DNA of 23,227 nucleotides, taken from IMG/VR virus record IMGVR_UViG_2565956617_000009, one strand, 5' to 3'. How positions within the stretch are numbered: position 1 is the first letter of the stretch; each line of letters starts with the position of its first letter. Source of the stretch: a virus. Taxonomy: Duplodnaviria; Heunggongvirae; Uroviricota; Caudoviricetes. The position numbers were made by a program, and so were the translations under genes. Under the pieces are notes generated by a model. The model saw nothing but the letters and a program-made list of their open reading frames with translations, did not search any database and was not told the origin of the DNA. Shown here one piece after another: positions 2,158 through 19,994 of the stretch.

Positions 2158-2505
2158 TCAACTCACAGGGATGGTTAACGAAAGTGGCTGGCCGGTGTCG
2201 TTGTGCTGACCGGTTAACGTGACCGTCATTCGCCCGTCAAAACTGCGCGCCGTGGTGACGGATGACAGGGTTACGCGGGGTTCCCATTTCAGCACCGCCA
2301 TGTAACAGGCGACCTTAATCTGCAACTCAAGCGCGGGGGTCTGCGGCTGGTCAATCATTGATGCCAGCAACGAGCCGTAATCACGACGCATCACCCGTGA
2401 GCCGACCGGTGTGCGCAGGATATCGCCGATACTCTGGCTGATATGCTCAAGGTCAGTGACAGTCAGGCCATCACTGCGATTCATCCCTAGATAACGCGCT
2501 GTCAT
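2158..2505 (-). CDS. W: Baseplate wedge protein gpW
   Basis: 115-aa ORF, same length as P2 gpW, between V and J. Confidence 0.9.
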   Translation of the reverse strand: MTARYLGMNRSDGLTVTDLEHISQSIGDILRTPVGSRVMRRDYGSLLASMIDQPQTPALELQIKVACYMAVLKWEPRVTLSSVTTARSFDGRMTVTLTGQHNDTGQPLSLTIPVS

Positions 2506-3137
2506 AGAGGACTCCCGGTTTTGCCGCCGCTGTCGCCGGGGTGTTTATGGGTATGCAGTACCTTCCCGTTTGATGAAAGTTCACCGCCGGTGTGTTCAAT
2601 GTTGCCGCGCATCGTCCCGCCCTTCTGCACTTCCAGCGTGCCGGTAATCAGCTTGTTGGTGCAGACCACCTCCGGTGTGTCCAGGGTGACGCGGGTTGAT
2701 GCTTTCACCATGACCACCGGCACCGTGGCAGTAACAGAATCAGAAGCCGTCACGCTGGCCGTTTTAATTCCGCTTACCGTGAGTGCACTGGTTTCAGGTT
2801 CATACTCAATCACCGCCCCGTCAGGGAAACGGATATGCAGGGCATCCGCCGACACCGACGGCGCGGGGTTATCGCCGGAATAAATCCCCGGCAGAACGAA
2901 CGCAGTGTCGAGTTCACCGCCCACGGCCAGAATCAGCACCTGTTCCCCCACGGAAGGTGCCCACCATGTGCGCGAACGCCCGGCGCGATGGGTCAGCCAC
3001 TGAAGCCAGTCGGTGCACATGCCGCCGGTCTGCACACGGCAGCGACCGGCGTTAAGGTCGGTTTCGACGACAAGGCCGGTACGAATCATGTTGCGCAGTG
3101 CGCGCGCGAGTTCCTGAATATTTGCGAGAGTGTTCAT
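2502..3137 (-). CDS. V: Baseplate spike/hub protein gpV
   Basis: ORF 2502..3173; start trimmed to the internal ATG (rc of 3135..3137, MNTLANIQ...) to give 211 aa, the P2 gpV length. Overlaps W by 4 nt. Confidence 0.88.
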   Translation of the reverse strand: MNTLANIQELARALRNMIRTGLVVETDLNAGRCRVQTGGMCTDWLQWLTHRAGRSRTWWAPSVGEQVLILAVGGELDTAFVLPGIYSGDNPAPSVSADALHIRFPDGAVIEYEPETSALTVSGIKTASVTASDSVTATVPVVMVKASTRVTLDTPEVVCTNKLITGTLEVQKGGTMRGNIEHTGGELSSNGKVLHTHKHPGDSGGKTGSPL

Positions 3138-3214
3138 GACGGGAAGGATGCCGCCGGACGATACCAGCAGCAATCATGGAGGACTCTGTCAGCCGTGACA
3201 CAACATAATAAATA

Positions 3215-3970
3215 TTAGTTGTAGCACTTCTCTATAATCTTCATACACTCCTCATGAGCTAAATCATGGCTGTCAAATTCTTTATTAAAAAAGAAGAAAA
3301 ACGCCTTCTTAACCTGAGGCATTTCAATAAAAATAAATTCATCAACCTTATGAAAGAAATGAAAACTCTTGTTTGATGTTTCAAAAACCATCAAAGAATT
3401 ATGTTTTTTATCCTTCCATTTCGACATCAGATTGCGTCGCGATTTTCTTATAATCCTGAAGACATCCTCCGGTGTCGTATCGACATTCCCCCAAAACATT
3501 GCAACCGGGAAGTTTGCAAGGAAAGGGATATAATCCCCCCCTTTATACCTGAGAAAGCGGGTCCGTAAATCCATTAATTGCAACTTAAAGCCCATGTATT
3601 GCAACCACCATATGATGCAATCATATTCATAATCTGTTAACTCATCGCCCCTCTTTTCCGTAAGAAATTTCTTCAGGTTATACTCAAACGCTCCCAGCAA
3701 ATCAGAATTGCACACTCTGCATGCTGGTACAGTGGCTTTGATGTAATGAGTTGACTGATTATTCTTTTTATTAATTAAAAGTTTTTCAGCATTTGACTCA
3801 AAGGCCCACTGAGGAATAATGTGCTCACGAGTAATATCGTCAGAACTCCCGCATAACACACATACATCAGCATTATGGTCAGCAATAATACAATCCATAA
3901 CTTTCTTTTGAGAATGCTTTACTCTTTTTCTCAAAATGGAAAATTTTTTATCCACAAACACCCATCTCAT
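3215..3970 (-). CDS. AT-rich accessory ORF (251 aa) with an HNH-type endonuclease motif, in the S-V slot (P2 orf30 position)
   Basis: Translation contains CVLCG...EHIIPQW...N...CRVCN, a CxxC...(D/E)H...N...CxxC arrangement typical of HNH nucleases. The DNA is visibly AT-rich compared with the flanking tail genes. Start ATG overlaps the S stop codon; same strand as the late operon. Confidence 0.6.
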   Translation of the reverse strand: MRWVFVDKKFSILRKRVKHSQKKVMDCIIADHNADVCVLCGSSDDITREHIIPQWAFESNAEKLLINKKNNQSTHYIKATVPACRVCNSDLLGAFEYNLKKFLTEKRGDELTDYEYDCIIWWLQYMGFKLQLMDLRTRFLRYKGGDYIPFLANFPVAMFWGNVDTTPEDVFRIIRKSRRNLMSKWKDKKHNSLMVFETSNKSFHFFHKVDEFIFIEMPQVKKAFFFFFNKEFDSHDLAHEECMKIIEKCYN

Positions 3971-4425
3971 ATAACATCTTTCGATAGAATCACTAATAAC
4001 TCCTTTTCTATCAATTGTATAGATTCCTTGTCAAAACCTAATAACTCACGAACAGGATATTCCACCACAGCACTATTACGCCCCGGCTTATCCCTAAGCC
4101 CTAATTGATGTACTCTCGCAATTCGTTGTACTCCGCTGGCAAACTCCACCACAGCCGCACTCTCGCTACCTGTTGCTTTCATAAATCGGTTTGTGCGTAA
4201 TTTCGCAAACATTTCCCGCTTTATCCGGCCTTTCTTATTTCGCACTGGCTGGTTTTTTCTCGGTATATACGGCGTACCATCCGGGGCTTTTTGTAATTTA
4301 ATTCGCTGCTGCTGGCGCTGGCGCAGTTTCTTCGCAATATCTACCGCCAGTCGCCGACGCCCTGACGGTGACAGCGATTCAATAAGTCCGGTCAGCCGGT
4401 CTTCAAAACGCTTAAACTCATTCAT
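3967..4425 (-). CDS. S: Tail completion protein gpS
   Basis: 152-aa ORF, close to P2 gpS (about 150 aa), immediately downstream of R. Confidence 0.85.
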   Translation of the reverse strand: MNEFKRFEDRLTGLIESLSPSGRRRLAVDIAKKLRQRQQQRIKLQKAPDGTPYIPRKNQPVRNKKGRIKREMFAKLRTNRFMKATGSESAAVVEFASGVQRIARVHQLGLRDKPGRNSAVVEYPVRELLGFDKESIQLIEKELLVILSKDVI

Positions 4426-6831: not shown

Positions 6832-7340
6832 CAGATTTGACTCACGATGCAGCGCGGCTTGCCCTGGATGCGCGCCACCGCCCAGCGCATATCCCGCCAC
6901 AGCTCATCAATGGTGCTGTCAATGCTGTCAGCCTTCTTGTCGCCTTTCGCACTGGCATCCACGCCGCGATAACGCTCATAAAGCGACGCGGTCGCCATCG
7001 CACACACGGCGCGCTCGTAGTAAAAAACTTTGATGCTTTCACCGTCGATGTCGTCCGCAGGGACGTCCGCCAGACGCGTAAAACCGGCGGCAATTTTCTG
7101 TTCGCGGTACTCGTACAGCTCTGCATTCGTCTCCGCCATGCCTGACTTGATGGCCTCACGCAGACGGGCGGGGGCGACGGTCTGCTCAAGGCGCATACGT
7201 TCCCGGACGCGCTTCGGGGCGATATCGGGAAAAAAGAACGTGTTTTTAATCACCGGCTCGTCGCCTGCCGGTTGCGGGATGACCACCGTACCCTCACCGG
7301 ATACAGGAGCCTCCTTTCGCGGAATAATCAGCGTCATCAT
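6831..7340 (-). CDS. L: Head completion/stabilisation protein gpL
   Basis: ORF trimmed to the double-Met start (rc 7338..7340, MMTLIIPRKEAP...) giving 169 aa, the P2 gpL length. Confidence 0.85.
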   Translation of the reverse strand: MMTLIIPRKEAPVSGEGTVVIPQPAGDEPVIKNTFFFPDIAPKRVRERMRLEQTVAPARLREAIKSGMAETNAELYEYREQKIAAGFTRLADVPADDIDGESIKVFYYERAVCAMATASLYERYRGVDASAKGDKKADSIDSTIDELWRDMRWAVARIQGKPRCIVSQI

Positions 7341-7439
7341 GACTACCTCTGAAAAGTCGGGCGGTGGACGCCGGTGCAGTGTCAGGTGATTCACCGTCAC
7401 TGACCGGCGTGCCGCCCTGGCGCGGGGCGCATTCGGTTG

Positions 7440-8183
7440 TTAACTGGCTTTCTTTTTCGGGCGTCCACGTTTTGCCGGTGTCACGCTCCGGGTCTTACGC
7501 GGGGTACGGGTGGCCGCTTTTGGCTGCGGCTCCGGCTTCGGTTTCAGCTCCCGCTCCAGTCGTTCAATCTCTTTTTTGACGCCTGCCTGACAGTCGAGCT
7601 GTGTCGCACGTTGCAGGTGCGCCAGCGCACCTGCGGCATCACCAGCGTCACGCAGAAACAGACCGGTAATTTTGTGCAGCTTTGCGCGCACTTCATCAGG
7701 CATGTCTGCCGTGGCGGTCAGTTCAAGGGTTTCCGTCAGCAGGCGGGGATCCACAGACTCACCGGCAGCGTGAGCGCGCATGGCCGCGAGCGCCACCTCC
7801 TCGGTGAACATGTACGGCGGGGTGCGACGGTGTTTACCCGGCATGGTCAGACCGTACTTCAGGGCATAGCGGGCAATCTCCAGCGCACCAGCGATATCGC
7901 CGGTATCCAGACGCCACAGCATGACCGTCATCAGAATGTCATCCTGTGCGCCTTTGCCCTGCTCCAGCACGCCGTTCACCCACGGCAACCAGAACGGCAG
8001 CAGTTCGCGTTTTTTCGCGGCCTTCAGCTCTTTTGAATAAATCGCTTTCAGTGTGCGCTGGTCTGCGGCCAGCTTAACCAGCATCTGCTCATAGACAGTT
8101 GCATGTCGCAGCGGGGCGGCTTCCCGCTGCGCGGTCATCGCTGCCGAGACCCGCATCATGTGGCGCTGTGCGGGACTCGTCAT
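7440..8183 (-). CDS. M: Terminase small (endonuclease) subunit gpM
   Basis: 247-aa ORF, same length as P2 gpM, between N and L; basic C-terminal tail. Confidence 0.9.
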   Translation of the reverse strand: MTSPAQRHMMRVSAAMTAQREAAPLRHATVYEQMLVKLAADQRTLKAIYSKELKAAKKRELLPFWLPWVNGVLEQGKGAQDDILMTVMLWRLDTGDIAGALEIARYALKYGLTMPGKHRRTPPYMFTEEVALAAMRAHAAGESVDPRLLTETLELTATADMPDEVRAKLHKITGLFLRDAGDAAGALAHLQRATQLDCQAGVKKEIERLERELKPKPEPQPKAATRTPRKTRSVTPAKRGRPKKKAS

Positions 8184-10173: not shown

Positions 10174-10346
10174 TGTCAGGAGTCCTGAATAGTGATTAGA
10201 GGAGTCACATGTCGGCATCAGTTTCCCGACGATGCGCATCCTCCGCCATCAGTCCCGGATGGCTTATCACTGACACAACAGCACCTTAGCGAATCGCGGG
10301 GCGCGACTCAGTAGCCTTGCCGTGTATTCATCACGGCGAGGTATTC
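10174..10346. promoter_or_regulatory. Divergent O/P intergenic region, expected to carry the activator-dependent late promoters
   Basis: 173-nt gap between divergent late operons, as in P2 where P_O and P_P lie here. I found no perfect TGT-N12-ACA dyad, only a near match TGG-N12-ACA at 10260..10277, so the exact promoter positions are not resolved. Confidence 0.4.
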
Positions 10347-12119
10347 ATGACCATCACCACAGACACCACTCTTTTACACGACCCGCGTCGTCAGGCGGCG
10401 CTGCTGTACTGGCAGGGATTTTCCGTGCCGCAGATTGCCGCCATGTTGCAGATGAAGCGCCCGACGGTGCAGAGCTGGAAACAGCGCGACGGCTGGGACA
10501 GCGTTGCTCCCATCAGCCGTGTCGAAATGAGTCTGGAAGCGCGGCTGACCCAGCTCATCATCAAACCGCAGAAAACCGGCGGTGACTTCAAGGAAATTGA
10601 CCTGCTCGGACGCCAGATTGAACGACTGGCGCGGGTCAACCGTTACAGCCAGACCGGCAACGAGGCAGACCTTAATCCGAACGTTGCTAACCGCAACAAA
10701 GGCGGGCGTCGCAAACCGAAAAAGAATTTTTTCAGTGACGAGGCCATCGAAAAGCTGGAGCAGATTTTCTTTGAGCAGTCTTTCGAATATCAGTTGCGCT
10801 GGTATCGCGCCGGGCTTGAGCACCGCATCCGCGATATCCTGAAATCCCGCCAGATTGGCGCGACGTTTTATTTTTCCCGCGAGGCGCTGCTGCGCGCCCT
10901 GAAAACCGGTCATAACCAGATTTTTCTGTCGGCCAGTAAAACGCAGGCGTATGTGTTCCGCGAATACATCATCGCCTTTGCCCGTCTGGTTGACGTTGAC
11001 CTGACCGGTGACCCGATTGTCCTGGGCAATAACGGCGCAAAACTAATTTTTCTCGGCACCAACTCCAACACCGCACAGAGCCATAACGGCGACCTGTACG
11101 TCGACGAGATTTTCTGGATCCCGAATTTTCAGGTACTGCGTAAGGTGGCATCAGGTATGGCCTCACAGAGTCACCTGCGTTCGACCTATTTCTCCACCCC
11201 GTCCACGCTGGCGCACGACGCCTACCCGTTCTGGTCAGGTGAACTGTTCAACCGGGGACGCGCCAGCGCCGCCGAACGCGTGGAAATCGACGTCAGTCAT
11301 AACGCCCTTGCCGGTGGGCTTCTCTGTGCGGACGGCCAGTGGCGGCAGATTGTCACCATTGAGGACGCCCTGAAAGGTGGCTGCACGCTGTTCGACATTG
11401 AGCAGCTCAAACGTGAAAACAGCGCCGACGATTTTAAAAACCTGTTCATGTGTGAATTTGTTGACGACAAGGCGTCGGTGTTCCCGTTCGAGGAGCTGCA
11501 ACGCTGCATGGTCGACACGCTGGAAGAATGGGAAGACTATGCGCCGTTTGCCGCCAATCCGTTCGGCTCCCGCCCGGTATGGATTGGTTACGACCCGTCA
11601 CACCGTGGCGACAGCGCCGGATGCGTGGTGCTGGCACCGCCGGTGGTGGCCGGTGGCAAATTCAGAATACTTGAGCGTCACCAGTGGAAAGGCATGGACT
11701 TTGCCACCCAGGCGGAATCCATCCGCAAACTCACCGAAAAATATAACGTTGAATACATCGGGATTGATGCCACCGGCCTCGGTGTCGGCGTGTTCCAGCT
11801 CGTGCGCTCGTTCTATCCCGCCGCGCGCGATATCCGCTACACGCCGGAAATGAAAACCGCAATGGTGCTCAAGGCAAAAGACGTTATCCGCCGTGGCTGT
11901 CTGGAATATGACGTCAGCGCCACCGACATCACCAGCTCGTTTATGGCTATCCGCAAGACCATGACCAGCAGCGGACGCAGCGCCACCTATGAGGCCAGCC
12001 GCAGCGAGGAAGCCAGCCACGCCGACCTCGCCTGGGCGACCATGCACGCCCTGTTAAATGAGCCACTCACCGCCGGTATCAGCACCCCGCTGACATCCAC
12101 CATTCTGGAGTTTTACTGA
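10347..12119 (+). CDS. P: Terminase large (ATPase) subunit gpP
   Basis: ORF 10317..12119 trimmed to ATG 10347 (MTITTDTTLLHDPRRQAALLYWQGF...) giving 590 aa, the P2 gpP length. GAGG lies 6 nt upstream. Confidence 0.9.
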   Translation: MTITTDTTLLHDPRRQAALLYWQGFSVPQIAAMLQMKRPTVQSWKQRDGWDSVAPISRVEMSLEARLTQLIIKPQKTGGDFKEIDLLGRQIERLARVNRYSQTGNEADLNPNVANRNKGGRRKPKKNFFSDEAIEKLEQIFFEQSFEYQLRWYRAGLEHRIRDILKSRQIGATFYFSREALLRALKTGHNQIFLSASKTQAYVFREYIIAFARLVDVDLTGDPIVLGNNGAKLIFLGTNSNTAQSHNGDLYVDEIFWIPNFQVLRKVASGMASQSHLRSTYFSTPSTLAHDAYPFWSGELFNRGRASAAERVEIDVSHNALAGGLLCADGQWRQIVTIEDALKGGCTLFDIEQLKRENSADDFKNLFMCEFVDDKASVFPFEELQRCMVDTLEEWEDYAPFAANPFGSRPVWIGYDPSHRGDSAGCVVLAPPVVAGGKFRILERHQWKGMDFATQAESIRKLTEKYNVEYIGIDATGLGVGVFQLVRSFYPAARDIRYTPEMKTAMVLKAKDVIRRGCLEYDVSATDITSSFMAIRKTMTSSGRSATYEASRSEEASHADLAWATMHALLNEPLTAGISTPLTSTILEFY

Positions 12120-13153
12120 TGAGCAAGAAAAAAGGGAAAATACCGCAACCTGCGGCAAAAAAAATGACCGCCAGCGCCCCGAAAATGGAGGCATTCACCT
12201 TTGGTGAGCCGGTGCCGGTACTCGACCGCCGTGACATTCTGGATTACGTCGAATGCATCAGTAACGGCAGATGGTATGAGCCGCCGGTCAGCTTTACCGG
12301 TCTGGCAAAAAGTCTGCGTGCTGCCGTGCATCACAGCTCACCGATTTACGTCAAACGTAATATTCTGGCCTCGACATTTATCCCGCATCCGTGGCTTTCC
12401 CAGCAGGATTTCAGCCGCTTTGTGCTGGATTTTCTGGTGTTCGGTAATGCGTTTCTGGAAAAGCGCTACAGCACCACCGGTAAGGTCATCAGACTGGAAA
12501 CCTCACCGGCAAAATATACCCGCCGTGGTGTTGAGGAGGATGTTTACTGGTGGGTGCCGTCCTTCAACGAGCCGACACCTTTCGCGCCCGGCTCCGTGTT
12601 TCATCTGCTGGAGCCGGATATTAATCAGGAGCTGTACGGCCTGCCGGAATATCTCAGCGCCCTTAACTCTGCCTGGCTGAATGAGTCGGCCACGCTGTTC
12701 CGCCGCAAGTATTACGAAAACGGCGCTCATGCCGGATATATCATGTACGTCACTGATGCCGTGCAGGACCGCAACGATATCGAAATGCTTCGCGAAAACA
12801 TGGTGAAGTCGAAAGGCCGCAACAACTTTAAAAACCTGTTTCTCTATGCCCCACAGGGGAAAGCCGACGGCATTAAAATTATCCCGCTCAGTGAAGTGGC
12901 GACGAAGGACGATTTTTTTAATATCAAAAAAGCCAGCGCCGCTGACCTGCTGGACGCGCACCGCATCCCCTTTCAGTTGATGGGCGGCAAGCCGGAGAAC
13001 GTCGGGTCGCTGGGTGATATTGAGAAAGTGGCAAAGGTCTTTGTCCGCAATGAGCTTATCCCGTTACAGGACAGGATCCGCGAGATAAACGGCTGGCTCG
13101 GTCAGGAGGTCATCCGCTTTAAAAACTACTCACTGGACACTGACAACGACTGA
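12119..13153 (+). CDS. Q: Portal (capsid vertex) protein gpQ
   Basis: 344-aa ORF, same length as P2 gpQ. Start overlaps the P stop (TGATG). Confidence 0.9.
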   Translation: MSKKKGKIPQPAAKKMTASAPKMEAFTFGEPVPVLDRRDILDYVECISNGRWYEPPVSFTGLAKSLRAAVHHSSPIYVKRNILASTFIPHPWLSQQDFSRFVLDFLVFGNAFLEKRYSTTGKVIRLETSPAKYTRRGVEEDVYWWVPSFNEPTPFAPGSVFHLLEPDINQELYGLPEYLSALNSAWLNESATLFRRKYYENGAHAGYIMYVTDAVQDRNDIEMLRENMVKSKGRNNFKNLFLYAPQGKADGIKIIPLSEVATKDDFFNIKKASAADLLDAHRIPFQLMGGKPENVGSLGDIEKVAKVFVRNELIPLQDRIREINGWLGQEVIRFKNYSLDTDND

Positions 13154-13322: not shown

Positions 13323-13341
13323 GTGCTTTCCCCGCCTCGCC
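13323..13341. other. cos site: 19-nt cohesive-end sequence of P2-type phages
   Basis: GTGCTTTCCCCGCCTCGCC on the plus strand is the reverse complement of GGCGAGGCGGGGAAAGCAC, which I recall as the P2 cohesive end. It lies downstream of Q where cos is expected. Confidence 0.8.
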
Positions 13342-13454: not shown

Positions 13455-15467
13455 TTAATGCACTTGTTGCATTGTCTCTTGAGCTTTCTCACCCTCTGGA
13501 ATTTTTATCGTATTACTATTAATTAAAGCATGAATTCGCTTATCGTTAGGCGAACGTTCAACTAGATGATCTAAGAATTCTTGCCATTGACGTTTAGCTT
13601 CAGCAAGCAGATCACCCCAAGTAAGAGTTTCAAGTCCATCCTCTTTAAGCTTTCTAACCTTTTTTAAAAATGCAGGATTTTTCTTGGCTATTTTATCAGC
13701 AACCAAATAACCAGTAGCAGTATTAAATCTTGATCCCGTAGAGCTTTCAAGATGGCCACGAAATGTGTCTACATATGTCTCAAACCTAACTAAATGATCT
13801 AAATCAATCATTAACCCTGGACGCATAAACTCAAGGATTAGCAAATGCTCACCACTCGCTAAAACCAAATCAACTCGTCCATTAAAATCTTCATCCTTAT
13901 CAAGGCCTGAATCTTTAGCTGCTTCAGCAGCCAAATCTCCGACATTTCGCTCCTTAGCGAAGGTTTCCCACTTTGGTGATATTAACCATGGGTTATTCGC
14001 AATATAATCTCGCACTGCATTTTCTAATTCACGATTTTTTATTCGTGACTCAAGTCCTATTATTGTGTCCAGCTTTGCCTTTACAGATTCAGCTGTATGC
14101 AATGCTTGTATTGTATTAGCCTCGATAAGCATAGATAGCAATTTATCGCCATCCATATCGGGTACTTCTGCAACTTGCCTGATTAACTCCTTTAACCGAC
14201 CTCCTTCCCATGCAGTAAGAACAGAATTGGCTAACTCTTTGAATTGATTTGCATTTATTTGATTAATGCTAGCCAACTTCTTAAGGGCTGTCATAATGGT
14301 TTTTTTCTCGCTTGGAGCGAGTTTTTCAATTCTTGAACTAAAGTCAGAAACTTTGTCTTCTATCAGTTTCGTTTTTTCTTCAGCCCTCCGGTCTTTCCAT
14401 ATTTTTAATAAATTGCGAATACGAGCCTTCCCCCACTCTTCAAGAGTGGCTAAATGATGATGCCCCCAATTCAACCGTTGTCGCTCAGTTGAAATAACAT
14501 CCTCATCAAATTCATCAAGGTAGTCAGCTAATACTGCACCCGTCATATATTCTGGCCCATTCTGGCTAGGTAACCCTCCTGCCAAATTAAACATAAATGG
14601 TCTTTGGGCTAATTTCCCATGAGAAAATATTGAAATACCTTGTAATTCCTCTTCCTTTATAGTTTCTTTTAAGAAGAAAACTCTCCATTTTATTTGATGG
14701 TCACCGACCATTTCTGTTCCCCATCCATCTTTATCAATCTCAGTCAATCCTTTTGGTTTTTCATCTTGTTTGTAGTCCTTAGGAAAGGACATTTCTGACT
14801 TGCTAAGAAAGTCTTCTGTAGGGATTAACTTCCCATCAATGCTCACATAAAAATCTGCTGCGGCAGCATTTACAGAGAAACGGCGAGCCATAGATGTTGC
14901 AAAAAAATCAGCTGAAATCAGGCGCTGAATTTTCAAACAAGTTAACTTAATTGTTGTACCATGTGCTTTTTTTAATTCATTGTTAGGTTCAACTCTCTCA
15001 ATCACATCGATGGTAAGTTTCGATGTATTGATATAATCATCATTTGATGAATCACGAATTTTATCAATATCTAGTACAAATGATGTTTTCTCGCCAGTAT
15101 CCTTACTAATAGTTGTTACTGTTATAACTGATGCAATACCAAAACCAGCAAATTTTCCAATTCCTTTTCTTCCCATCAGTGGACGTTTTAAATCACGGGA
15201 AAGCGTTTTTGCATTATTTTTACGCTTATCATACCCCACTGTCAGAAACTTATTCTGACATTCCTCTAGGGTCATTCCGATACCATTATCTTGAATCGTA
15301 ATTGAGAAATCGTCATGCGTAGGAAGAGTAATTTTCACCTCAGTTGCATCAGCATCCCAGGAGTTAGAAACCATTTCAGCAATAGCAGCTGTTGGACTTT
15401 GATACATTTGTATGCCCAAATGATCAATTATTCTTCCGTGGAAACTTAAAAATAAAGATTTTTCCAT
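13455..15467 (-). CDS. GHKL-superfamily (Bergerat-fold, MORC/MutL/Hsp90-like HATPase) ATPase, 670 aa, with an uncharacterised C-terminal region; candidate effector of a methyltransferase-linked system
   Basis: Motifs read from the translation: N-box EMVSNSWDA (nt 15351..15377), G1 box DNGIGM (15273..15290), G2 box GRKGIGKFAGFG (15138..15173), then GTTIKL. ATG at rc 15465..15467 lies 4 nt after the methyltransferase stop, with AGGA about 9 nt upstream. Strongly AT-rich. Confidence 0.85.
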   Translation of the reverse strand: MEKSLFLSFHGRIIDHLGIQMYQSPTAAIAEMVSNSWDADATEVKITLPTHDDFSITIQDNGIGMTLEECQNKFLTVGYDKRKNNAKTLSRDLKRPLMGRKGIGKFAGFGIASVITVTTISKDTGEKTSFVLDIDKIRDSSNDDYINTSKLTIDVIERVEPNNELKKAHGTTIKLTCLKIQRLISADFFATSMARRFSVNAAAADFYVSIDGKLIPTEDFLSKSEMSFPKDYKQDEKPKGLTEIDKDGWGTEMVGDHQIKWRVFFLKETIKEEELQGISIFSHGKLAQRPFMFNLAGGLPSQNGPEYMTGAVLADYLDEFDEDVISTERQRLNWGHHHLATLEEWGKARIRNLLKIWKDRRAEEKTKLIEDKVSDFSSRIEKLAPSEKKTIMTALKKLASINQINANQFKELANSVLTAWEGGRLKELIRQVAEVPDMDGDKLLSMLIEANTIQALHTAESVKAKLDTIIGLESRIKNRELENAVRDYIANNPWLISPKWETFAKERNVGDLAAEAAKDSGLDKDEDFNGRVDLVLASGEHLLILEFMRPGLMIDLDHLVRFETYVDTFRGHLESSTGSRFNTATGYLVADKIAKKNPAFLKKVRKLKEDGLETLTWGDLLAEAKRQWQEFLDHLVERSPNDKRIHALINSNTIKIPEGEKAQETMQQVH

Positions 15468-15471
15468 TTGC

Positions 15472-16500
15472 TTATCCTAATTCAATAAGATGTTTTTTTA
15501 TTACCTCTGCATGACGCTTGATAAATTCTGGAGGTAACGCATTACCAATCATAAGAGCTGCTCTATCTTTACCATACTTGATTGGAAAGTAATAATCCTT
15601 CGGAAAAGTTTGCAATAGAGCGGCCTCCCGCAAAGTGATCGCTCTATCTTGTACAGGATGAAGGAATCGTCCTTTAGATGGATTAGTGCAACCACTTGTT
15701 ATTGTTGGGGATACATCATCCCATTTCATGCGCCCATAAACATCCCTAAATCCATTTGGATATTTTTTATGGCACGGTAGCCAGTATTCATATGGTAAGT
15801 CAGAACGACTACCACCATCTTTTGGCACTAGCTTTATTATATTCATGACTTTTTCAGAGCGATTTTCTTTTATATTATGCAAAAAGTCATCACTATATTG
15901 AGGTAATGGTAAATCTCCAATTACATCCTTAACAGTTACTTTTTTGCTATTTTTTTTCGCTCTTGGTAAATATCCTAATCTTGAAGCCAACATTACCATA
16001 CGCCGCCGTCTCTGTGGCACTCCATAGTTAGAAGCATCTTCAATCGCAACAGAGGTTGAATCAATGAAATACCCTAACTGTTTCAATTCATCGCAAAAAA
16101 TTTTCATGCGATAATCTTTAGCTAATGCGGGCACATTTTCCAACATTACTACTTTAGGAAGAAAGTATTTAACAAATTCCAAAAACGAAAATATTAAATC
16201 ATTCCGTTCATCGGTAACCGAAGAATATTTATTCCTCGTTCTTAAGCTTGAAAAACCCTGACATGGAGGACATCCTGCAAGCAAGTCAAGTTGCCCTTGC
16301 TGGAGACCAAGTTCAATCATGATTTTTTTGGGGGACAACTCCCTTATGTCTCCCGTATACAATGATACATCAGGATGATTCTGCATATAGGTTTCAGAAA
16401 CAATAGGCTCCTTTTCGACTGCTGATATAACGTCAAAGCCAGCCATCTTAAGACCAACTGTCAGGCCACCTGCGCCGCAGAAGAGATCTATCGCTTTCAT
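15472..16500 (-). CDS. DNA (cytosine-5)-methyltransferase, 342 aa
   Basis: Canonical C5-MTase motifs: motif I FCGAGG (16465..16482), catalytic PCQ in GCPPCQGFS (Cys codon 16261..16263), motif VI ENV (16132..16140), motif VIII QRRRR, C-terminal GNALPP. AAGGA lies just upstream of the ATG at rc 16498..16500. AT-rich. Confidence 0.9.
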   Translation of the reverse strand: MKAIDLFCGAGGLTVGLKMAGFDVISAVEKEPIVSETYMQNHPDVSLYTGDIRELSPKKIMIELGLQQGQLDLLAGCPPCQGFSSLRTRNKYSSVTDERNDLIFSFLEFVKYFLPKVVMLENVPALAKDYRMKIFCDELKQLGYFIDSTSVAIEDASNYGVPQRRRRMVMLASRLGYLPRAKKNSKKVTVKDVIGDLPLPQYSDDFLHNIKENRSEKVMNIIKLVPKDGGSRSDLPYEYWLPCHKKYPNGFRDVYGRMKWDDVSPTITSGCTNPSKGRFLHPVQDRAITLREAALLQTFPKDYYFPIKYGKDRAALMIGNALPPEFIKRHAEVIKKHLIELG

Positions 16501-16551
16501 AAAATCCTTAACAAACCTAAACCAATATATAACATTGAAAAATATTGGATG

Positions 16552-16580
16552 AGTATAAATGACTCTCCATGTCGCAGCAA
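16552..16580 (-). promoter_or_regulatory. Candidate sigma70-type promoter for the methyltransferase-ATPase operon
   Basis: On the minus strand TTGCTG (-35, plus coords 16575..16580), a 17-nt spacer, then TATACT (-10, 16552..16557), about 50 nt upstream of the methyltransferase ATG in an AT-rich leader. Confidence 0.3.
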
Positions 16581-16767
16581 AAGTATATTTGTGAAAGACA
16601 GCTCAGATAGGAGCAGAGCACCAAACATATCGGATTGTCGATGCATGAACGAGGAATCACCATTTCTCTAATACATACTCTAACTCTGAAGAGTAAGTTC
16701 TTGTGTATGTTCATTTCACTTCCAGAGCCAATGCTACTCAACCTCATCAGCCCTGAAAGCAAAAGAT

Positions 16768-16992
16768 TCACGGCTGACGGGATTCTCGACCATCTGCGGA
16801 TGACGATGCAACTCTATACTGACCGATATCGTTAAGCCGCCCGTAATTATCCCGGACTATTTCGGCACACCCGACCAGCTCGTCAGGCGTCAGATTTTCG
16901 TTGACCATAATCTGCTGTAGACGGTGAACAATAGCCATCAGCTTGATATTTTTAGTGTTATGTTGCGGTATCTCGCCTGGTATTCTGTGCAT
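16768..16992 (-). CDS. Small hypothetical protein (74 aa), translationally coupled to the upstream ORF
   Basis: ATG at rc 16990..16992 overlaps the stop of the preceding ORF (TAATG). No recognisable motif. Confidence 0.4.
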   Translation of the reverse strand: MHRIPGEIPQHNTKNIKLMAIVHRLQQIMVNENLTPDELVGCAEIVRDNYGRLNDIGQYRVASSSADGRESRQP

Positions 16993-17444
16993 TATCCAAG
17001 CCACCCGTTTTGCTTTGCACGCTCAATCTGTTCATCTGAATAGCTCCACATCCCATCCGCAGCAACCACTGCCCCGCCAGACAGCCCTGTCACTGACTCA
17101 TACATAACAGCAAGACCGAGCTGATGCATAATTTCATGATTAATTCTGAATACCAGACCACGCTCACCAAGCTCTTTCCAGTTCACAATCTCATATGCGC
17201 CTGTATTAAGCAGCTCAATACTTAGCAAGACATAATCTTCCAGCCAGTCTGACAGGTCAGTAACATCTGTTATCCGGGCTTCAACCTTTCGCCCCGTATA
17301 CACACCCTGCACCCATTCATGCAAAATCAACGTGTCCCCGCGCTCATAATTACGGTCATTTTTCCGAAACTCTGCACGTTTCTTTCCTTCCAGCACAAGG
17401 TCGAAATATTTTGCGTGCAGCTTTACCTCGTGAATTTTTGCCAT
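16992..17444 (-). CDS. ASCH/DUF3850-like small protein downstream of A (P2 orf91 position), with a C-terminal extension
   Basis: Start MAKIHEVKLHAKYFDLVLEGKKRAEFRKNDRNYERGDTLILHEW resembles the ASCH-like/DUF3850 pattern as I recall it. ATG at rc 17442..17444, 19 nt upstream of the A stop. About 150 aa, longer than I would expect for this family. Confidence 0.55.
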   Translation of the reverse strand: MAKIHEVKLHAKYFDLVLEGKKRAEFRKNDRNYERGDTLILHEWVQGVYTGRKVEARITDVTDLSDWLEDYVLLSIELLNTGAYEIVNWKELGERGLVFRINHEIMHQLGLAVMYESVTGLSGGAVVAADGMWSYSDEQIERAKQNGWLG

Positions 17445-19729
17445 GATGTCCACTCCATTACTGTTGAGAATCCCGGCCACTCATCAGTGACCGGATACGT
17501 GAATTTTTTCCCGTCATAATTTACGGTCGCGCCACGCGCCAGCGCCTCAAGTTCCCATCGCTGAGGCCAGATGCCGTTCTGAGCAAGGTCAACACGGATA
17601 CGGGTAATTTGCATACGCTCCGACCGGGTCAGCCTGGCCGATGGCGCTATTTCATTCGGTTTTAACGGGCTTCCGTTTCTTTGCTGACGGTTTGGTGTTC
17701 TCAGGCCGTGTTTTAATGCGCCCCTGAGCGCCCTCACGACCTCCGGGTCATTCCATTCGATAACACCGTCATCAACCAGATTAAGCACGGCTGCGGCGTG
17801 CTCAGAAGGTGTGGGAGCCGGTAACGAAGTATCACCACCGGTGAGCTTTCCACAGTTATTGACAGGACTCCGAGGCGCGGCGATGCCGCTTTTTAAAGTC
17901 AAAGGCTCAACGACCGGCACTTTCGGCACAATGCGCCAGTCCGTCGTTCTGGTGATATGAATATGACGCGCGCCGAGATGCGGCGCGTAAATGCCGACCA
18001 CTCTCTCGACTTCTTCCTCGTACTCGTTAACGTCATCCGACGGGCTACGGGCAACCCTGACAGTCTGACAATCGCGCGGAACATTTGCCCCACCCTGCGC
18101 GCTGATATACAACGCAAAATCACCACTGTCTGCGGCGGCGCGTGCAGCCTCGACGCGCTCGTCAAACTCATCAGCAATGCTGACGCCGCGCGGCAATTTG
18201 CGTAGTTCACGGTAAGCCCCCATTGTCGGCAGACCAACCGTTTTAAATTGCGGGATGCGCCACGTTGACGCCCATGCAGTAACAGCCGCGGCAGTATCTT
18301 TCAGAGGTCTGCCGGTATCGTTATCGAGCTGACCATCCAGTGCATAGCCGTCGATGTTTTTTGAGATGTATTTCGCGATATACCCCGCAGCACCGCCCCG
18401 GTTAAGGTGTTTTGCCTGAAAACGGTTTCGCGCGGCTCCTCTTTCGTCGCCATCCTCTTTGAGCGCATAGCGACGCATGATTTCGATAATCTGGTTACGC
18501 TGGCGCGGATTACAAAAAAGCATCATATGCCAGTGCGGCGTTCCGTCGTGGTGTGGCTCGACGACACGCAAACCGTAGACCTGTAAATCATTATCCTTGA
18601 ATGCCGTGCGCATCAGGCTCCAGATACGGCAGAGATAACGCTGCGCATCCTTTGGATTAAATGCCTCATCGTTCCAGCCGTGATTTAGCTGGACGGTTTT
18701 ACTTTCGCCTTTTCTGACCTGACGTGTCGGGTGATACTTTGACGGCGCGGTCAGCGTGATAAACATCCCCACATCACCCTCTGCTGCGGCGTAACGCTCA
18801 ATACCGGCAATGGTGTTCATCAGCTCCATCCGGCGAATTTCAGGATTAGAAATACTGCCCATCACCTTACTGATAAGGTCGATGCGCTCGCCGGTTTCCC
18901 TGTTTTCAAGGTCACACGATTTAAGAAATTCCAGATTTGCCTGGCGGCGCGCACGCACATCACGAATGGCATGTTTACTGGCATAAGGAGAACGGTCTTT
19001 ATTGACCTCCCCGACAGCTATCAGTAACGCCTCATGCCAGCGCATACGCTGGCCTTTAAGCTGATGAGTCCACCACTCATCGTTAAACAGGCGGGCAATG
19101 GCAGAATATGCCTGCCTCGTGGTCATCTGTCCTTTACGGTATTTTTTCCAGTAGAGCGGGGAAATATTGAAAGCACGTGCAGCGCCAGCAACATGACCAT
19201 AGAGGTGAGCCTGCGCCTCATCCGTAAACAGCGATTCTTTTTCGCCATGTGCATCAACCCAGGCATCGCAGAGTTCCTCATACATCATGAAAAGCTGCGA
19301 TGAGATACGGGCAGCAAACTTTTTCAGCTCCTTGTCATTCATTCCCGGCAGGCGCGCATAGTGGTCACGCTCTGCCAGAAACAGTAACGACGCGTCGGTG
19401 TTCATTTCATGGCGCTGATTCACACGCTCAATGCGCGGCCATAAACGACGCTGAAAAGTGGATGTGAGGAAATAAAACCCGTGCACCGGGCTTTTATTGC
19501 GCCGGATGTAGTCATAGCGTGAAGTAAACAGCGAGCGCAAAAAGTAAGGCAGGCGGTTAATCGTGGATAAAACACCTTGCACCTGACGCATCTCGTCACG
19601 TGTAAGGGGTCTTTCGCGCCCGACAGCCTCGCGTGGCGCGTTCCATGCATAAGCACCGGTAAACGCCTTACCGGTGCCTGCAGCAAATGCTGACGGAGGG
19701 ACAAAACGCCCGGAGGCTTTAACGACCAT
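17423..19729 (-). CDS. A: Replication initiator gpA (rolling-circle HUH endonuclease)
   Basis: Near-identical over long stretches to P2 gpA as I recall it. HUH motif in GTPHWHMMLF and paired-tyrosine motif GAAGYIAKYISK. Start set to the ATG at rc 19727..19729 (MVVKASGRF...), about 768 aa; the ORF track extends to 19771. Confidence 0.9.
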   Translation of the reverse strand: MVVKASGRFVPPSAFAAGTGKAFTGAYAWNAPREAVGRERPLTRDEMRQVQGVLSTINRLPYFLRSLFTSRYDYIRRNKSPVHGFYFLTSTFQRRLWPRIERVNQRHEMNTDASLLFLAERDHYARLPGMNDKELKKFAARISSQLFMMYEELCDAWVDAHGEKESLFTDEAQAHLYGHVAGAARAFNISPLYWKKYRKGQMTTRQAYSAIARLFNDEWWTHQLKGQRMRWHEALLIAVGEVNKDRSPYASKHAIRDVRARRQANLEFLKSCDLENRETGERIDLISKVMGSISNPEIRRMELMNTIAGIERYAAAEGDVGMFITLTAPSKYHPTRQVRKGESKTVQLNHGWNDEAFNPKDAQRYLCRIWSLMRTAFKDNDLQVYGLRVVEPHHDGTPHWHMMLFCNPRQRNQIIEIMRRYALKEDGDERGAARNRFQAKHLNRGGAAGYIAKYISKNIDGYALDGQLDNDTGRPLKDTAAAVTAWASTWRIPQFKTVGLPTMGAYRELRKLPRGVSIADEFDERVEAARAAADSGDFALYISAQGGANVPRDCQTVRVARSPSDDVNEYEEEVERVVGIYAPHLGARHIHITRTTDWRIVPKVPVVEPLTLKSGIAAPRSPVNNCGKLTGGDTSLPAPTPSEHAAAVLNLVDDGVIEWNDPEVVRALRGALKHGLRTPNRQQRNGSPLKPNEIAPSARLTRSERMQITRIRVDLAQNGIWPQRWELEALARGATVNYDGKKFTYPVTDEWPGFSTVMEWTSWQKFTR

Positions 19730-19994
19730 ATGAGCCAAAAGCCTCTGAACAACGCTTGCTGAGTCGCTCAACCTGCGCGTTTAAATCAGCAAAAGACTTT
19801 GCGCTTCCGGTCAGAATATCGTGATGCATCAGGCCGGAAACGAGCTGGTTTAATTTCGGGTAATAACCAACCACCGACAGCCATTCCTGACCGGCGTTTT
19901 TACCGCTTTCCGCTCTCTTTTTCTCGTGGAGAATAAACTGAAAGCTGTCACTGGTAACGACATAACGTTCGCCAATTTCAATACAAATACTCAT
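19719..19994 (-). CDS. Early-operon small protein (P2 orf83 position)
   Basis: 91-aa ORF immediately upstream of A, overlapping its start, in the cox-B-A operon. Confidence 0.6.
   Translation of the reverse strand: MSICIEIGERYVVTSDSFQFILHEKKRAESGKNAGQEWLSVVGYYPKLNQLVSGLMHHDILTGSAKSFADLNAQVERLSKRCSEAFGSYGR

Follow-up and report, generated by a model that had tools for sequence, protein, structure and literature searches.

A GHKL ATPase with a rewired PD-(D/E)xK-fold active site in a probable restriction-modification module of a P2-like prophage

Restriction enzymes fused to a GHKL ATPase domain have been predicted since 2008, and to our knowledge none has been dissected biochemically. R.HgiDII combines a GHKL N-terminal domain with a C-terminal domain that was not assigned to any fold (Orlowski & Bujnicki 2008, PMC2441816). 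paraMORC3 proteins join a GHKL+S5 module to a RecB-like E-D-ExK domain and occur in restriction-modification contexts (Iyer, Abhiman & Aravind 2008, PMC2292703). GHKL-Shedu proteins have been classed as type I-D (Gu et al., bioRxiv 10.1101/2023.08.10.552793). VcSduA defends against phage experimentally, a function abolished by mutating either its ATPase Glu (E27A) or its nuclease Lys (K557A) (PMC12137116). The single-chain GHKL-nuclease architecture is already known (PMC2292703, PMC12137116), and the novelty of the protein described here lies in its active site. Here, we describe two adjacent genes in IMG/VR virus record IMGVR_UViG_2565956617_000009, a 23,227-nucleotide (nt) stretch of DNA that is referred to in full as the window. 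One encodes a C5 cytosine DNA methyltransferase and the other a 670-residue GHKL protein. Judged from sequence, they probably form a 5-methylcytosine (m5C) restriction-modification module in a P2 hotspot, with the 670-residue protein as a putative ATP-controlled nuclease whose catalytic charge would have been relocated. The finding is a real and mostly explicable piece of defence cargo with one notable feature, a cleanly coupled rewiring of the active site. The two genes and the parts of the GHKL protein are as follows.

15472..16500, minus strand: C5 cytosine DNA methyltransferase, 342 residues, first gene of the operon (translation; Pfam PF00145; PADLOC; NCBIfam).
13455..15467, minus strand: GHKL-ATPase/PD-(D/E)xK-fold restriction-type protein, 670 residues (translation; PADLOC REase_II; NCBIfam NF050001 below cut-off).
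14868..15467, minus strand: GHKL (Bergerat) ATP-binding domain, residues 1-200 (Pfam, invariant columns, AlphaFold2).
14463..14855, minus strand: beta-rich middle (transducer) domain, residues 205-335 (AlphaFold2, Foldseek, invariant columns).
14037..14459, minus strand: long helix and helical bundle linker, residues 337-477 (AlphaFold2 secondary structure, predicted local distance difference test [pLDDT] 50-90).
13515..14027, minus strand: PD-(D/E)xK-fold nuclease domain (alpha/beta), residues 481-651, whose helix 1 bears E482 and R486.
13815..13880, minus strand: core strands GRVDLVLASGEHLLILEFMRPG, residues 530-551, with R531, D533 and E546-F547-M548-R549-P550 (hhalign places M548 on the Lys of EiKRP).
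13743..13802, minus strand: helix after strand 3, residues 556-575, bearing H558, R561 and Y565 (AlphaFold2; alignment to K-type relatives, defined below).

AlphaFold2 modeling of residues 440-670 (pLDDT 83, predicted template modeling score 0.76) gives an alpha-beta-beta-beta-alpha-beta arrangement, which is the PD-(D/E)xK topology, and nearly all of the best structural matches to this model are nucleases of that fold. A preliminary description of the locus, made from the letters alone, had proposed a degenerate PD-(D/E)xK core with the Lys replaced and had named structure prediction with a fold search as the check; the model bears out the fold, with D533 and E546 in the canonical positions and Met548 replacing the Lys family-wide. 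Its assignment of nt 13815..13880 to residues 530-551 and its numbering of D533 were right, while the Glu that it numbered E547 is E546. The placement of D533 at the start of strand 2 and of E546 within strand 3 makes the fold assignment secure. The core fold is present and the D...(D/E)xK triad is incomplete: D533 and E546 are retained and invariant, and the Lys site is occupied by Met548.

Sequence methods hardly detect this fold. The window protein scores 13 bits against Pfam PF14082 (SduA_C), the model that defines Shedu, where the threshold is 27, and NCBIfam NucS matches with an E-value of 0.05; sub-threshold SduA_C matches occur in nine of 32 family members. A profile of the C-terminal domain had no match at E<=10 among PDB sequences, and a single K-type sequence gave only a chance match there, so that the signal against the PDB came from fold comparison alone. 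Profile-profile alignment with hhalign backs the residue equivalences used here: the C-terminal domains of the M-type proteins, to which the window protein belongs, align with those of K-type proteins at a probability of 99.9% (E 6e-35) and with a stand-alone GHKL-Shedu group (L082-L086) at 96.5% (E 7e-10). L082, the one member of that group tested, passes the Pfam SduA_C threshold. The hhalign result supports remote homology of the window nuclease domain to Shedu. In both alignments, M548 pairs with the Lys, R561 with a Gln, Y565 with a Tyr and H558 with an acidic residue.

More than 1,900 homologues of the GHKL protein were detected. Relatives were drawn from 80 genomic loci found in a scan of a genome collection (51 M-type and 29 K-type), from the top 150 of 781 cluster representatives matched by a C-terminal profile, and from two homologue searches; the combined alignment holds 360 full-length proteins. 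They exhibit two active-site states.

K-type (n = 168): E482, D533, E546-x-K548-R-P and Q561xxxY565; residue at 561: Gln (163), Arg (3) or Lys (2).
M-type, including the window protein (n = 192): E482, D533, E546-F-(M/V/I/L/T)548-R-P, H558 and R561xxxY565; residue at 561: Arg (190), Lys (1) or Trp (1).

The K-type constellation is the E-D-ExK plus QxxxY set of RecB, NucS and Shedu nucleases. Among the 360 proteins, a hydrophobic residue at 548 never occurs together with Gln561, and 191 of the 192 sequences that lack Lys548 have a basic residue at 561. E482, D533, E546, R561 and Y565 are invariant in a family of about 50% identity drawn from many phyla, the invariant-site clade covering Proteobacteria, Actinobacteria, Chloroflexi, Bacteroidota and Archaea. 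This is a conserved active-site feature far beyond chance. That the three carboxylates, the Tyr and the new Arg are strictly invariant in both Bacteria and Archaea points to a working catalytic site and not a relic. A limited literature search found no description of the ExM/RxxxY constellation.

The lone W561 protein among the M-type sequences, P0166, has a decayed site (S531, G546, W561 and Q565). Two loci, L046 and L052, encode products of about 532 residues, truncated or frameshifted ahead of the nuclease core. All three are probably pseudogenes or degenerating copies. Separately, two Neisseria gonorrhoeae records of about 1.55 Mb in the plasmid collection (H30 and H31) show homology to residues 2-408 of the GHKL protein only, with no annotated gene beneath, and this stretch may be a truncated or pseudogenised relative.

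A neighbour-joining tree was built on residues 1-440, the ATPase part, so the nuclease domain had no influence on it. In this tree, M-type proteins form a single derived clade nested within K-type diversity. The earliest M-type branch, P0211, carries M548 and R561 yet retains the K-type Gln at 486. The sister group of the M-type clade holds three proteins with K548 and R561 and one with K548 and K561; intermediates in or next to this group are P0225, P0238 and P0246 (K548+R561) and P0205 (K548+K561). The simplest history suggested by these sequences is that Q561 changed to Arg first and K548 became dispensable afterwards, and the extant K548+R561 forms possibly mark the path along which the charge would have been relocated.

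The roughly 200 N-terminal residues of the protein had been said to carry all the Bergerat-fold motifs, and they do: motif I comprises E31, N35 and D38, motif II is D60-G62-G64 (DNGIGM), residues 99-110 (GRKGIGKFAGFG) form the lid, T171 represents motif IV, and an N-terminal strap strand spans residues 4-9. Motifs I-IV of the GHKL superfamily are therefore all in place. Pfam HATPase_c_3 matches residues 25-171 (4e-25), and E31, N35, D38, D60, G62, G64, K101 and G104 are invariant in all relatives examined. The middle domain contains an invariant stretch, E328-R329-Q330-R331, in which R329 may act as a gamma-phosphate sensor. The full-length AlphaFold2 model (pLDDT 77.7) has four parts. In Foldseek searches, about 400 N-terminal residues of this model align to the N-terminal and middle domains of TRAP1/Hsp90 and to the ATPase cassettes of MORC2 and MORC3 (E 1e-13 to 1e-14), in agreement with the proposed MORC/MutL/Hsp90 branch and with a GHKL plus middle (S5-like) module of the MORC/paraMORC type. 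The protein is 100% identical to P0001, annotated 'ATP-binding protein [Escherichia coli]', and corresponds to coding sequence WP_023156284.1 in NZ_CP041919.

The partner gene encodes an intact C5 methyltransferase with the motifs DLFCGAGG, GCPPCQGFS, ENV, QRRRR and GNALPP, matching Pfam PF00145 over its full length (1e-58), PADLOC MTase_II (3e-82) and NCBIfam dcm (6e-44). A gap of 4 nt separates the methyltransferase stop codon from the ATG of the GHKL gene, and an AGGA precedes this ATG by 9 nt. Linkage is kept in relatives: 34 of the 51 M-type and 24 of the 29 K-type loci have a C5 methyltransferase at a distance of no more than 300 bp, mostly upstream and on the same strand as the GHKL gene. 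The adjacent cognate DNA methyltransferase that defines type II restriction-modification systems is thus present in the window and in 58 of the 80 related loci. PADLOC calls the GHKL protein REase_II (3e-53), and residues 13-637 align collinearly with positions 9-647 of the 659-position NCBIfam model NF050001 (BbrUII/HgiDII; E 6e-98). Methyltransferase linkage, the PADLOC call, the end-to-end NF050001 alignment and the invariant active site together point to a restriction-modification pair, and the methyltransferase 4 nt upstream, with its linkage in relatives, favors the restriction-like effector that the preliminary description had predicted. The domain folds and motif states were established computationally, as were the gene linkage and the location described below.

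In a Halomonas locus (L004), a gene for a Vsr very-short-patch repair endonuclease (7205-7660, minus strand) directly follows the methyltransferase/GHKL pair, which sits in an apparent P2/P4-type element (Ogr_Delta, Toprim). No Vsr gene was found in the low-GC island of the window.

We propose that the methyltransferase, transcribed first, would mark host and prophage DNA. In an ATP-dependent manner, the GHKL ATPase and the middle domain of the Hsp90/MORC type would form a dimeric clamp that closes on DNA and controls the C-terminal NucS/Shedu-like PD-(D/E)xK nuclease, which is predicted to cut unmodified incoming DNA with a sequence specificity that is likewise predicted. By analogy with MutL, MORC, Hsp90 and VcSduA, ATP-driven GHKL dimerisation may gate the nuclease or position it on DNA. 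The putative nuclease would retain the metal-binding carboxylates E482, D533 and E546 and the active-site Tyr565. The canonical Lys has given way to Met548, and the same evolutionary step appears to have brought in two residues of the adjacent helix, His558 and, at the Gln position of QxxxY, Arg561. The positive charge given by Lys548 in canonical relatives would then come from Arg561, alone or together with His558. Spaced i, i+3 and i+7 along a single helix, H558, R561 and Y565 share one face of it, which may point at the metal site as the corresponding face of NucS does.

A bolder version of this scheme is considerably more doubtful. In it, the helix (Arg561, with help from His558) would have taken over the basic catalytic role from Lys548 on strand 3, and the ATPase cycle could swing Arg561 in and out of the site, making restriction ATP-gated. 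Bacillus cereus Shedu, with its sequestered motif-II Asp, is offered as an analogue of such a switchable Arg561.

Several observations weigh against the proposed restriction-modification pair. The canonical catalytic Lys is absent (Met548). The coupling of positions 548 and 561 may reflect one historical event, in which case the counts are not independent. Furthermore, no C5 methyltransferase lies within 5 kb in 11 of the 51 M-type loci; such loci are found mainly in Streptomyces and relatives, where the neighbours looked at include type IV enzymes, and they indicate that the protein can exist without a linked protecting methylase.

The main rival explanation, which we consider unlikely though the strongest of the alternatives, builds on the last of these observations. 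It takes the protein as a Shedu-like stand-alone nuclease (type I-D, like VcSduA) that is GHKL-regulated, acts independently of methylation and responds to a sign of infection, for example free DNA ends or a protein of the phage, the methyltransferase being independent or loosely coupled. Besides those 11 loci, stand-alone paraMORC3 and VcSduA genes exist and defend. Against it stand the 4-nt gap between methyltransferase stop and GHKL start and their common ribosome-binding context in the window, the methyltransferase adjacency in both clades, usually on the same strand, and the fact that the closest curated models, PADLOC REase_II and NF050001, describe restriction enzymes.

The loss of the catalytic Lys family-wide would also fit a catalytically dead nuclease fold that serves as a DNA-binding or dimerisation module, with a MORC-like clamp that compacts or blocks unmethylated DNA or recruits another nuclease. 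MORC ATPases work without cutting DNA, and inactive PD-(D/E)xK domains occur in other proteins. This explanation is improbable, given that the three carboxylates and the Tyr have stayed strictly invariant over very long divergence, that 561 is basic in all but one of the 192 sequences without Lys548, that the decayed P0166 illustrates what relaxed selection looks like, and that no second nuclease gene is conserved beside the methyltransferase/GHKL pair in the neighbourhoods of the relatives. A modification-dependent (type IV-like) enzyme, its M-type site and GHKL clamp aimed at methylated or otherwise modified DNA, is very improbable and was rejected for the window locus, as co-transcription with an intact C5 methyltransferase, seen in most loci including this one, would make the pairing suicidal for an m5C-dependent nuclease.

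The setting of the two genes is consistent with the restriction-modification pair. The whole window is a P2-like E. coli prophage with 100% identity to NZ_CP041919, and the 8-kb stretch that includes the two-gene cargo is present in eight of 5,426 complete E. coli genomes. The surrounding features are listed below.

10317-12119: terminase gpP.
12119-13153: portal gpQ.
13323-13341, minus strand: P2 cos cohesive-end sequence at the edge of the hotspot (exact 19-nt match, 0 expected by chance).
Island side toward gpA: small hypothetical gene (RefSeq annotation).
16992-19771: DUF3850/ASCH gene together with gpA.
17423-19771: replication endonuclease gpA.

The 19-nt query behind the cos match is what we take to be the P2 cos sequence. 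The cargo forms a low-GC island (36-39% GC, with 55-60% in the flanks) between the portal gene gpQ and the replication gene gpA, adjoining cos; the distance from cos to the GHKL stop codon is 114 nt. The GenBank record of Yersinia phage P37 begins at the cos base, and this phage holds both cargo genes at 99.9% identity. Other E. coli P2 prophages hold different, unrelated cargo at the same site. The cos-proximal gpA/gpQ site is a described P2 defence hotspot (Rousset et al. 2022, PMC9122126), and both genes are cargo that fits its definition.

A scan upstream of the methyltransferase found no convincing promoter, all matches being at or below the shuffle expectation. An open reading frame (ORF) called at 16517-16771 on the minus strand was discarded: it is of low complexity and absent as a gene from the RefSeq annotation. 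Elsewhere in the window, a second low-GC patch (GC 0.40-0.44) at 3215-3970 on the minus strand contains a 251-residue ORF between the P2 tail gene S (3967-4425) and the spike gene V (2502-3173). This is presumably the position at which phage P2 has the non-essential orf30. Neither Pfam nor PADLOC gave a match for the ORF, which may be a further cargo gene with an accessory or defence role.

Several consequences follow for the wider family. The collinear NF050001 match implies that the C-terminal domain of HgiDII, a purified enzyme, is the same PD-(D/E)xK domain, and the window homologue of that domain can now be placed in the NucS/Shedu branch of PD-(D/E)xK. A large and widespread M-type clade works, if at all, without the canonical lysine. 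If active, this clade would be a natural case of catalytic residue relocation, and the window protein would allow the role of ATP in a type II-like restriction enzyme to be studied in a tractable E. coli setting within a phage hotspot.

Among known systems, BbrUII/HgiDII is related by the pairing with an m5C methyltransferase and the GHKL N-terminus. The window protein differs in scoring 329 bits against a curated cut-off of 550, short of equivalog status, in a comparison made via the family model. K-type proteins (345-382 bits) score slightly above M-type proteins (278-329 bits), and 14 diverse relatives searched against NCBIfam for a true NF050001 member all fell below 550 (156-382 bits). 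A tblastn search of plasmids returned matches whose annotated products were generic (ATP-binding protein, cytosine methyltransferase, sensor histidine kinase or similar), none of them named BbrUII or HgiDII. Likewise, the best scorer, P0257, led to no named member when used as the seed of a homologue search. For M.BbrUII itself, the literature is in conflict: PMC5867850 and PMC5829577 disagree on whether it is an m5C enzyme homologous to M.HgiDII or performs N6-adenine methylation, a conflict that matters because BbrUII serves as the named reference of the family.

paraMORC3, GHKL-Shedu and VcSduA share with the window protein the GHKL ATPase, the Hsp90/MORC-like middle and a C-terminal PD-(D/E)xK domain of the RecB/NucS/DUF4263 type. 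Theirs is the canonical E-D-ExK site and many stand alone, whereas the window protein has ExM plus RxxxY and lies in a methyltransferase operon. It fits the paraMORC3 architecture, but its motif reads E482-D533-E546xM548, without the K; its K-type sister proteins match paraMORC3 in motif as well. In NucS, the active site consists of D160, E174, K176, Q187 and Y191 (PMC7343888). NucS/EndoMS (PDB 2vld, 5gke) differs from the window protein in having K176 and Q187 at the positions of M548 and R561. It acts in mismatch repair, and it has an N-terminal DNA-binding domain and no ATPase. Cfr10I/NgoMIV-type enzymes, which lack a GHKL domain, provide a precedent for the migration of a catalytic residue, although there it is an acidic residue and here it would be a basic one, replaced by Arg. 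MORC, Hsp90/TRAP1 and MutL share the ATP-binding motifs, the N-terminal strap and the GHKL-plus-middle module with the window protein, which lacks CW, coiled-coil and chaperone C-terminal domains as well as a metal-binding endonuclease domain of the MutL type. Departing from the ExK motif, the SduA_C threshold and the NF050001 cut-off alike, the window protein is a variant of these named groups and not a member of any of them.

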